A stretch of 64,000 bases of DNA. Source: Euglena gracilis (lineage: Eukaryota). The translations under genes were made by a program, and so were the position numbers. A model generated the notes under the pieces. That model ran no database searches and had not been told where the DNA came from. It was given only the letters and a program-made list of their open reading frames with translations. Shown here piece by piece: positions 18,301 to 21,300 of the stretch. Positions within the stretch are counted from its first letter, which is position 1. Each line of letters starts with the position of its first letter. The stretch spans positions 44,743,847 to 44,807,846 of the forward strand of contig CP154954.1 of NCBI GenBank assembly GCA_039621445.1, read 5' to 3'.

Positions 18301-21300
18301 TTTGTGCCATTCCACAAGAAAATGAAATGTCTTCGAACGTCTCAAAGCATGATGCAGTGCAGCGAGCATGTTCAGGCACAACTCAGCTATGTGGAGCACC
18401 GCACAAACACGGTGTGCATCTTTCGCACAAACACGCTGTGCATGTTTCGCACAAAGAACAAGTTCATGGCATGGGGCCCCCATTTTATTGTTGAAGCACC
18501 ACATACGGTTCTCAGTGCTCGGATATGGGGAGCGACAGGGACGGTCCAGCTGGTTTGTAGCGGGCGGAACCGCCGGTGGATGGGCAGACGAAGTCTCGGT
18601 GGGGACAGTGGTCCTGCCCATCCTGTACAGTCCACCGACCGTCCCATTCTGTTGTTTACCAACCCTCGACATCCGGTGGATTGGGTCCACAGACTCTGCA
18701 GAGTCAGCAGTGGTCTTTGGGCCAATCGGCAACCCCGAACCTCCCGGCCTACGTTGTTAAGCTTGGAGCCGCTGACGGGCGGGTCCTAAGTTGGGTCCTC
18801 CCCACCCCCTGCCCGGGGGGCTGGCGGGCGACCTGGACATGTACGGGCCACGGCACCCGAAGGTGGTCACCGGGCTGCTGTGCGTGGCGCGGGACCTGCA
18901 GCGCCGCGGGGAGCTGCGCGACGCCGCGCTGATCAGGGGTTTGCTCCAGCCGGAGGGGGCCCCACCCCGGGGGGGGGGGGGGGGTCCAGCCAGACAGCAC
19001 CTTTTTTTCCAGCCAGCACATCCCAGCCGGGCTGCGGACACCGCTGAAAGAAAAAGTTCGGGCCAGCCTGGCAAAAAAATTTCGGCACAAAAATTTTCAA
19101 AGGGGGTCAAAGGTAGCCAAAAAAGGCATGTTTGGGTGCTTTTTGGGATTTCGCCCAATATTTGGCTGAAAAATGACAACCCAGCTGGATTTGGGCTTAT
19201 TTGGGTATTTTTGGGGTACCCGCCAGGTCCAGCTCCCAGCCAGCCTCCCCACCCCCCTGGGACCCCTCCACCCCCTACGGGGGGGAGGGGTCCAGCCAGC
19301 ACTTTTTTCCAGCCGGTCTGCGGGACACACCTACCCCCCTGGGTCCTCAAGAAAGCCTCTGGCGCTGATGTTCAAGCGGGCCGTTGAGGCCCAGAGCGCG
19401 GTGATCGGCGCGCACCACGCAGACGTCGGGGTGACTTACGGGCAGCTGGCGGGGGTGTACGAGGGGCTGGGCCCAGGCCGGCTGCGGCTGATGACCGCCC
19501 CCCCCGCCTGAGGTTTGACACGAGGAGGGCGAGCTGCCCCCCCCCCCACCCCCAACCAGACCAATCACCCACCAACCAAAGCTGCACCAGACCCCCCAGG
19601 GGCCCTCCTGAAAGGTAAAAAAGGTTGAAAGGGGGCTGGCGCAGGACGCTCTGTGTTTCGGCGGGTTCAGCCAGCGACCGCGGCAAAACATGACTCCAAC
19701 AACGTGCGCAAAGGCAGCAGTTATATTTAATGACATAAATGTGCCGTCTTTTGGATGGCCCCATTTGCCAGCAGCCTCGTAGACTCCTGGGTTATCTTGC
19801 GTGCCATTAATTGGCCAGAATAACAGCCATGGGGTGCAGAGGGGCCCCAAATCAAGCTGAACCATTTCTGCCATCAAAATGGACAGAAATGTTTTTTGGG
19901 CCAAAATTTTGGCATTTTGGAAAAAAAATTCTCGAAATATTTCGCATGTTGAAAAAATATTGAAACAAGCACACAATCAAACTAACAAACAAACTCCAGC
20001 CCTGGGGATGGCCGCCGGCCTGCAGCTGGGAGTGGGACCGCGCTCTGGCGATGTATGAGCGGTCGCTGGAGCCATACCATTGCTTAACACCTGTCCCACC
20101 CCCCCCCCGGGGGGTGACTGACTGGTTTTTTCAGAGTGACTGACTGGTTTTCTGGCCAAGACCCCCCTCCCCCCGGGGGTGGGGTAGGCCCGAAAATGAA
20201 AAGTGGCTGGCCTGGCGCCGAAGGCACCGGAAATTTTTTGAGACTTTTTGGCAATATTGCCTTGCCAACATGAGCGCACCCAAGAGTGGCGGATCCCCGG
20301 GGGGGGGGGGGTAAAGTGACTGACTGGTTTTTTGGGGGGAAAGTGACTGACTGGTTTTTTCAGAGTGGAAAGTGACCCCCCCCTCCCCCCCCCGGGGGGG
20401 TCGCTAAGTAATGGTATGGCTGGAGCTGCAGCTGGCGGTCTGGGGTCCGATGGAGCTGGAGATGGGCCGCATGTGCCACCGTATGGCGACGCTGTACCAG
20501 AAGCAGGGCAACCAGGTCCGCGCCCTGGAGCTGTACGCCAAGTCCCGGGCCGTGAAGGAGGCCGTGCTGGGACCGGGCCAGGCGCCGGCTTCGGCGCCCG
20601 GAGTCCTCAGAGCCTTTGTGCGCATGCCCAACACAGGCGTTTGCAGTTGGTATGTGCGCACATGCCCGTGTGCTTGTGTGCACATGTGCCCGATGCCGCA
20701 CGTGTGCGCCCGCACACCGCTGACACCGCTGCATACGTCGCTGCCTGGTGCCCGACATGGCAACCCAGAAACTCCCGAAACTCCCCCGGTCCTGTCCGAA
20801 ATAAGACCCGGGTCCTATTTGGGGGGGGGGTACCTTGAACAACATTTCAGGCGGGTCCCGGCGGGACCCTCCCCGAACGTCGTTCGACGTCGTCCGAAGA
20901 GGGGGAGGGGGGCACCCTCCGCCCCCGGCCCCTCCCCCACCGTCCCCCGGCCGGCGGCTGGGCCCAGGGACCCGGTGGTGGGGGCCATCTCGTTCGTGAT
21001 GGCGCAGCTGTTCCAGGCGGAGGGCCAGTACCCGCAGGCCCTCGAGGCGTACAACCGCGTCCTGGCCATCCAGTCCGCCCCGCCGGGCCCCGTCTGCCCC
21101 TGGCCCGCCGTGGCCTGGCCTTCCCAGGGGGGGGGGGTTGGGGGGGGGGGCATGGGGCGGCGGCATGAGGGGGGGGGGGGGCAGGCCGTTGCTTCCGGTA
21201 TTTTCCAGGAAGGTCGCAGGGGGGCTAATGGGCAGGCAGGGGGTAGGGCACTTTCAACCCCCAGGAGGGGTTGGGTGTTGGGCTGGGTGGTGCTATGGCA

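Follow-up and report, generated by a model that had tools for sequence, protein, structure and literature searches.

Two repeat elements with 8-bp target-site duplications as nonconventional introns of a Euglena gracilis TPR gene

We analyzed a stretch of 64,000 nucleotides from the genome of Euglena gracilis (assembly GCA_039621445.1, contig CP154954.1, positions 44,743,847 to 44,807,846 of the forward strand; hereafter the window) and found that two introns of a gene coding for a TPR_12/ankyrin protein coincide with delimited repeat elements. Both elements, which we term E1 (intron 15) and E2 (intron 17), have inverted-repeat ends that lie flush with perfect 8-bp direct repeats, and each of the two introns comprises the element together with exactly 8 further nucleotides, which is the length of one copy of the flanking repeat. 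[quoted passage not shown] The length of the duplication is also the sum of the two spacers that have been determined experimentally for euglenid nonconventional splicing, and this equality would explain in a simple way how coding sequence can become flooded with them.

Introns 15 and 17 of the TPR gene

The exon structure of the gene could be followed with P0001 (eukprot EG_transcript_1598), a transcript-derived protein of 803 aa that is 100% identical to the window in the exon downstream of E2. As many as 802 of its 803 residues equal the conceptual splice product of the window gene; the lone difference is at residue 474, where the window encodes K and P0001 has Q, and it corresponds to an A>C variant at 19374 seen in RNA runs. 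Pfam searches with the host protein recovered TPR_12 (E=1.1e-41) and a weak ankyrin match at the N terminus, below the Pfam cut-off. When all junction solutions were checked, a GT/GC-AG solution was available at none of the 24 introns, all of which are nonconventional. The protein mapping agrees with RNA-supported joints at introns 13, 14 and 19 (17066>18047, 18135>18829 and 21095>21682; 3/3 among the 15 of 133 joints listed), and none of these three joints was present in the DNA run. The paralogue P0002, which is 56% identical to P0001, aligns with it gap-free over both insertion sites, and E1 and E2 therefore interrupt conserved TPR coding sequence. A second protein search for a further allele of EG_transcript_1598 returned only this paralogue. 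Two expressed haplotypes or alleles of the gene are apparent, differing at about 5 of 107 exon positions (19374-19436 and 20440-20551, including the K/Q difference at residue 474); the variant at 19374-19436 is present in RNA runs X15, X21 and X22 and absent from DNA run X1.

The left end of E2 reads CATACCATTGCTTA and its right end, taken as the reverse complement, CATACCATTACTTA, with agreement at 13 of 14 positions. In the minimum-free-energy fold of the element these two segments pair with each other, giving 14 contiguous pairs that start from intron positions +4 and -6. Once E2 is deleted along with one copy of its flanking repeat the coding sequence reads ...MYERSLELQL..., and the same residues are found in P0001, which over this site reads ...AMYERSLELQLAVWG... 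The junctions of intron 17 can be slid to give 9 solutions, all of which are 354 long, that is, E2 plus 8. The left junction of E2 is spanned by a DNA contig (19449-20096) of an independent run, with no differences.

The ends of E1 are CAGGGGTTTGCT on the left and, as the reverse complement, CAGAGGCTTTCT on the right; they pair at 9 of 12 positions by Watson-Crick rules, or over 9 contiguous positions from +4/-6 if G-U pairs are allowed. Deletion of E1 with one repeat copy yields ...DAALMFKR..., matched in P0001 by ...RDAALMFQRAVEA..., which includes DAALMFQR, and the 10 junction solutions of intron 15 are uniformly 436 long, again the element plus 8. A BLAST comparison of E1 with E2 gave no match at E<=1e-3, their common features being restricted to G/C-run hairpins. 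Among the contigs from the RNA run, contig 9 matches exon 15 as far as 18933, and contigs 10 and 11, which represent two alleles, resume at 19362, each with 18 extra upstream letters unmatched to E1. Such breaks at the duplication are the pattern expected of a joint with 8 ambiguous bases. On the evidence of the protein and of these contigs, the mature message contains neither E1 nor E2. Among the joints listed there was no back-splice for either element.

An earlier note made from the sequence of the window had described both insertions, as well as the rule that cutting 3 nt before and 5 nt after each element removes it with one copy of its duplication. Its coordinates, the perfect duplication at E2, the lack of relationship between the two elements and the cutting rule are all upheld by the above results; the 14-bp inverted repeats that it gave for E2 are, at 13/14, imperfect.

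Sister copies, a third family and splice geometry

The E2 family is represented in the window by one more full-length member, E2b, which is 73.7% identical to E2 over its entire length, the non-G/C parts included. It lies in a 111-bp satellite inside intron 20, has inverted repeats agreeing at 13 of 14 positions and is flanked by a duplication of its own (8/8). Seven other satellite units carry the uninterrupted sequence TTTTGGGGCCCTCGA and represent paralogous empty sites. Intron 20 itself (21726-27527) is a 5.8-kb nonconventional intron, in which the satellite forms an array of about 4.5 kb (22610-27073) with higher-order periods of 145, 256 and 367 bp that is broken by E2b; just after the array, a 33-bp tandem repeat of 4.7 copies (27073-27226) has an internally palindromic unit. 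Owing to a segmental duplication (1-2650 versus 9027-11688, 99.06% identity), exons 1 to 3 of the TPR gene occur twice in the window (676-2018 versus 9699-11049), and each copy has, upstream of exon 1, a degenerate relative of the E2 family with GTGACTGACTGG motifs and without recognizable ends (201-491 and 9227-9514). No large indel was found between the copies of this duplication, which therefore offers no presence/absence case.

A scan for exact k-mer repeats flanking 10/12 inverted repeats recovered a third family, E3, nested in intron 22 and with inverted repeats matching at 11 of 12 positions; a stricter earlier scan of the window had missed E1 and E2b. The second copy of this family, E3b, is 683 bp long including a nested insert of about 380 bp (60194-60573), whose inverted ends are different (TAATAAGTGCGCA...TGCACTTATTA) and which probably represents a further transposon family, one whose target is short or of the TA type. 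Counting E1 and the two members found for both the E2 and the E3 family, five copies from three families could be delimited in the window, and all five are flanked by an 8-bp repeat, perfect in four cases and 7/8 in one. Each copy has a repeat of its own, namely GCGCTGAT for E1, GCTGGAGC for E2, TTTGGGGC for E2b, ATTGAGGG for E3 and ACCCCTG(T/C) for E3b. None of E2b, E3 and E3b forms a whole intron, and there is one whole intron each from the E1 and E2 families, a number that does not demonstrate the suggestion of the earlier note that several MITE families serve as introners. The elements are non-coding, 279-428 bp in length (683 bp with the nested insert) and bounded by terminal inverted repeats; their duplications are of fixed length and differ from copy to copy, and they include a multi-copy family with empty sites, all of which are features of MITEs. 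Both E1 and E2 are highly repeated in genomic reads. The E2 bins have a summed word depth of 1.16 million (bin 20059-20256) and 0.47 million in DNA run X1; the depth is 43,548 inside E1, whose bins range from 14,938 to 181,751, compared to 35-98 in the unique neighboring bins. Summed word depth is not a copy number, but the difference amounts to several orders of magnitude. A metagenome scan with a 15-nt E2 end gave 119 loci; when these were compared by BLAST with E1 and E2, not one of them matched at 1e-5, and all are therefore chance matches.

Positions of the TPR gene and of the elements within the window
Feature	Position	Strand	Remarks
Host gene, 25-exon TPR_12/ankyrin protein gene with 24 nonconventional introns	9699..31091	+	exact peptide matches of P0001 in three + frames
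E1 target-site duplication, left copy	18926..18933	+	GCGCTGAT
E1, 428-bp MITE-type element (intron 15)	18934..19361	+	canonical 436-nt intron, 18931-19366
E1 target-site duplication, right copy	19362..19369	+	GCGCTGAT
E2 target-site duplication, left copy	20065..20072	+	GCTGGAGC
E2, 346-bp MITE-type element (intron 17)	20073..20418	+	canonical intron 20070-20423, 354 nt
E2 inverted repeats	20073-20086 and 20405-20418		13/14 match
E2 target-site duplication, right copy	20419..20426	+	GCTGGAGC
E2b, second full-length E2-family copy, with flanks	23749..24118	+	element 23757-24110 (354 bp); own duplication TTTGGGGC
E3, third MITE-type family, with flanks	28556..28850	+	element 28564-28842 (279 bp); ends CAGGGGTTTTTTTT...AAAAAAAAACCCTG; duplication ATTGAGGG, 8/8
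E3b, second E3-family copy, with flanks	59943..60641	-	element 59951-60633; flanks ACCCCTGT / ACCCCTGC, 7/8

The signals for nonconventional splicing were defined by Nomura et al. (2025) through knock-in mutagenesis as N3-CDG...CH'G-N5-6 followed by R, with a donor spacer of 3 nt in which no change was tolerated and an acceptor spacer of 5 nt, for which 6 nt was tolerated; single changes to either CAG or CTG left the tested backbone unspliced (PMC12501133). E1 fits this code fully, as GAT-CAG...CTG-GCGCT followed by the G of the acceptor exon. Across the host gene, CDG...CH'G is seen at both ends of 16/24 introns and a purine comes first in the acceptor exon of 23/24, with A in this position after E2. 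If the stem is set at +4/-6, the intron exceeds the stem-bounded length by 8 in 22/24 introns and by 9 in the remaining two (introns 11 and 14), and introns 5 and 19, which have a single junction solution each, show the 3-nt and 5-nt spacers independently. An unconstrained search for the best contiguous stem of each intron was confounded by inner helix segments and was discarded. The 3-nt donor spacer, given as N3 in the published code, is non-random in this gene, its third base being C in 20/24 introns and GCC occurring 8 times.

As the spacers sum to 8, splicing takes out any element whose insertion duplicated 8 bp along with exactly one copy of that duplication. This link between duplication length and splice offset is consistent with all the data reported here and with the published experiments, and the arithmetic of the earlier note, 3+5=8, is in agreement with both the published code and the 22/24 introns. 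From the position-specific base composition of the flanks of the 24 host-gene introns we computed that a match at 8 of 8 flanking positions arises by chance with a probability of 2.1e-4 per intron, and about 0.005 such matches are expected among the 24; two were observed. E2 and E2b do not have the same 3-nt and 5-nt spacers; those of each copy are identical to the flanks of that copy. Such copy-specific spacers fit a staggered cut in DNA.

Weighing the explanations

We consider it likely that E1 and E2 are MITE insertions in exons that are removed by nonconventional splicing together with one copy of their duplications. According to this explanation, two non-autonomous cut-and-paste DNA transposons would each have inserted into an exon of the TPR gene, duplicating 8 bp of the target, and in the pre-mRNA the inverted-repeat ends of each would pair with one another. 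Nonconventional splicing in Euglena would read the terminal helix and cut 3 nt upstream and 5 nt downstream of it, so that the element would be excised with exactly 8 nt, and since these 8 nt equal one duplication copy the reading frame would be restored without a scar. We infer that the insertions are the work of a transposase, that exons tolerate such elements because splice offset and duplication length match, and that the older nonconventional introns arose in the same manner.

Several observations weigh against this explanation or narrow its reach. The mapping of RNA junctions suggested in the earlier note, which gave the expected contig breaks at E1, fell short at E2, whose joint, like that of E1, is not among the 15 of 133 joints and 24 of 916 loose ends listed; the evidence for removal of E2 therefore consists of P0001 and the RNA coverage of the flanking exons. 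P0001 carries the Q allele at residue 474, and hence possibly derives from a haplotype whose E2 status may differ from that of the window. The critical triplets of E2, CAT...ATG, lie outside the published CDG...CH'G code; the 14-bp helix may compensate for these triplets. The agreement of 22/24 introns with an offset of 8 holds partly by construction because the stems were placed by hand with the 3/5 rule. When the 8 nt before the stem were compared with the 8 nt after it, the other 22 introns showed no significant flank identity in register, with 3.05/8 positions identical against 2.78/8 in a null of non-cognate pairs (permutation p=0.16; neighboring registers 2.05-3.0), and the broader claim of the earlier note, that the entire splice code is the footprint of insertion, is not demonstrated by them. 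One non-cognate pair also matches at 8/8 (CAGGCAGC), indicating that the junction consensus, with its 3-nt spacer that is mostly R-S-C, raises the frequency of chance matches. For 8-mer repeats combined with inverted repeats, the window-wide scan that recovered E3 revealed no excess at offset 0 (7 hits versus 5-10 at other offsets), tandem repeats and satellites being dominant. Finally, a Pfam scan of nine long open reading frames (ORFs) of the window detected no transposase, only retroelement and methyltransferase domains; neither the hAT transposase nor a BED finger nor the dimerization domain was found in these ORFs.

The alternative that survives best concerns the class of transposon and the direction of causation. 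Elements of the hAT superfamily produce 8-bp target duplications and have termini of the consensus YARNG. The ends of E1 (CAGGG/CAGAG) and E3 (CAGGG at both ends) are compatible with this consensus, and those of E2 (CATAC at both ends) and E2b (CAGAC/CATAC) are not; the nTnnnnAn pattern was looked for in the five duplications and was absent from all of them. We use hAT as a compatible label and not as an assignment; it is based on the 8-bp duplication and the CAG.G ends of E1 and E3, and autonomous relatives would be recognized by the terminal motifs CAGGGGTTT... and CATACCATTGC... The elements could instead be MITEs of another superfamily with 8-bp duplications, P-like, Merlin-like or undescribed, with 3+5=8 acting as a filter, such that a splice geometry that existed beforehand lets only 8-bp-duplicating elements survive in exons. 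In addition to the deviating ends of the E2 family and the lack of the target pattern, the existence of Merlin families with 8-bp duplications in E. gracilis (PMC8101967) and the 22 older introns without a duplication remnant favor this alternative, but the ends of E1 and E3 are of the hAT type, Merlin ends are GG, unlike those of the E1-E3 elements, and the direction of causation is not decidable from one window. Taken together, we regard it as a serious contender, with a likelihood that comes close to an even chance without quite reaching it.

The origin of the 8-nt repeats in the repair of double-strand breaks or staggered nicks, with the introns created by repair rather than by transposition, appears very unlikely. 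Milanowski et al. (2016) suggested such repair for a strain-specific new intron with eight-nt direct repeats (PMC4770533), and no transposase has been tied to E1 or E2, but the E2 and E3 families have copies outside exons with different 8-bp flank repeats, one of them with seven empty paralogous sites, the inverted-repeat ends are flush with the repeats in all copies, and the genomic depth over the elements far exceeds that of the unique flanks. Spread through RNA, in which an excised circular intron would reverse-splice into new transcripts and then be copied into DNA, we hold to be highly improbable. Nonconventional introns are released as full-length circles (as cited in PMC11282704 and PMC12501133) and E2b and E3 sit in transcribed introns within the window, but reverse splicing would carry along the N3 and N5 of the donor and create no target duplication, and the copy-specific spacers, equal to the flanks of each copy, argue against it. 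That ordinary nonconventional introns with fortuitously slidable junctions account for the repeats, and low-complexity G/C runs for the family likeness, is scarcely credible: short junction repeats do occur in 84.4% of E. agilis introns (PMC12501133), the elements are rich in G/C runs and one non-cognate pair of flanks matches fully, but both 8/8 matches exceed the chance expectation and are flush with inverted repeats, and the alignment of E2 with E2b extends over both in full and takes in the parts that are not G/C runs.

The interpretation of E1 and E2 as spliced MITE insertions can be extended, tentatively and with considerable doubt on our part, to the splicing system as a whole. In that case nonconventional splicing might 'undo' one class of DNA transposons at the RNA level, with offsets tuned to an 8-bp staggered cut, and most of the nonconventional introns of Euglena, about 70% of its introns, might be decayed MITEs; the pyrimidine/purine consensus at both junctions would then be the same target position seen twice, and the preference for RSC in the spacer a relic of target choice. 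If this were true, any exonic insertion of that transposon class would be erased from the message. The equality of duplication length and summed spacers by itself predicts that, genome-wide, young introns belonging to repeat families carry junction repeats of exactly 8. It also suggests a new interpretation of the 8-nt repeat reported for an intron that E. agilis gained recently.

A MITE-like origin of nonconventional introns was proposed in 2014 (PMC3935182), a 2024 review describes the junction repeats as 'TSD-like' (that is, like target-site duplications) and the CAG/CTG stems as terminal inverted repeats (PMC11282704), and a 2025 PNAS paper considers the origin of these introns still unclear, with MITE-like elements a possible source (PMC12501133). 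An eight-nt direct repeat is likewise in print for the recently gained, strain-specific intron 4 of gapC in E. agilis ACOI 323, where it was attributed to double-strand-break repair (PMC4770533). The novelty suggested in the earlier note is thus reduced to the explicit link between duplication length and offset: in literature searches and in the texts of these papers, figures and supplements aside, we found no statement that relates the 3+5 offsets either to hAT or to a duplication of 8 bp, and no demonstration of nonconventional introns as members of repeat families with non-exonic copies. The link appears to be new and testable. The MITE idea had rested on inverted repeats and 'TSD-like' repeats, and the window adds delimited cases, namely whole introns that are repeat-family members with intact 8-bp duplications, along with sister copies outside exons, one of which has empty sites.

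Other features of the window and known systems

Outside the TPR gene, a retroelement on the minus strand (46627-53812) has ORFs with the Integrase_H2C2, RT_RNaseH and RVT_1 domains. Its 445-aa ORF (49788-51125) matches Dam (E=4.9e-9) and the C-5 DNA_methylase (E=9.6e-5), and two ORFs located upstream (525 aa and 372 aa) gave no Pfam match. An interstitial telomere-like repeat, CCCTAA in about 22 copies (40628-40759), lies inside a long minus-strand ORF (40572-41705) for which no Pfam match was found either. A unit of about 900 bp (57040-57955) is bounded by the perfect 20-bp inverted repeat CGCCGGCGAGCAAGGCATGG; the first 8 bases of this repeat are palindromic and could equally be an 8-bp duplication.

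Introns 15 and 17 share with other euglenid nonconventional introns the lack of GT-AG borders, a helix from +4 to -6, spacers of 3 and 5 nt, a purine at the acceptor and slidable junction repeats. They differ in that each belongs, over its full extent, to a repeat family and is delimited by an 8-bp duplication that is still intact, and E2 furthermore uses CAT...ATG. Intron 4 of gapC is also nonconventional, has eight-nt junction repeats and is present or absent among strains; it has been read as a trace of break repair, with neither family membership nor non-genic copies reported in the text (PMC4770533).

Among transposons, hAT MITEs of the Ac/Ds type resemble the elements described here in the 8-bp duplication and the short inverted repeats, and the CAGGG/CAGAG ends of E1 and E3 are similar to YARNG, whereas the CATAC/CAGAC ends of the E2 family and the lack of an nTnnnnAn target pattern set them apart. 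The Merlin elements are DNA transposons of the same species that likewise generate 8-bp duplications, but they end in GG, whereas the elements reported here start with CA (PMC8101967). The introners of Micromonas, Aureococcus, dinoflagellates and Fritillaria are, like E1 and E2, short non-autonomous DNA transposons with inverted repeats whose duplication supplies a part of the junction (PMC11282704). Introners are removed by the spliceosome, with signals that reside in the element or are co-opted from a duplication of 3-5 nt (PMC11282704), whereas the removal of E1 and E2 would be nonconventional and guided by structure, and no sequence signal in the target would be needed because the two offsets sum to the full 8-bp duplication.

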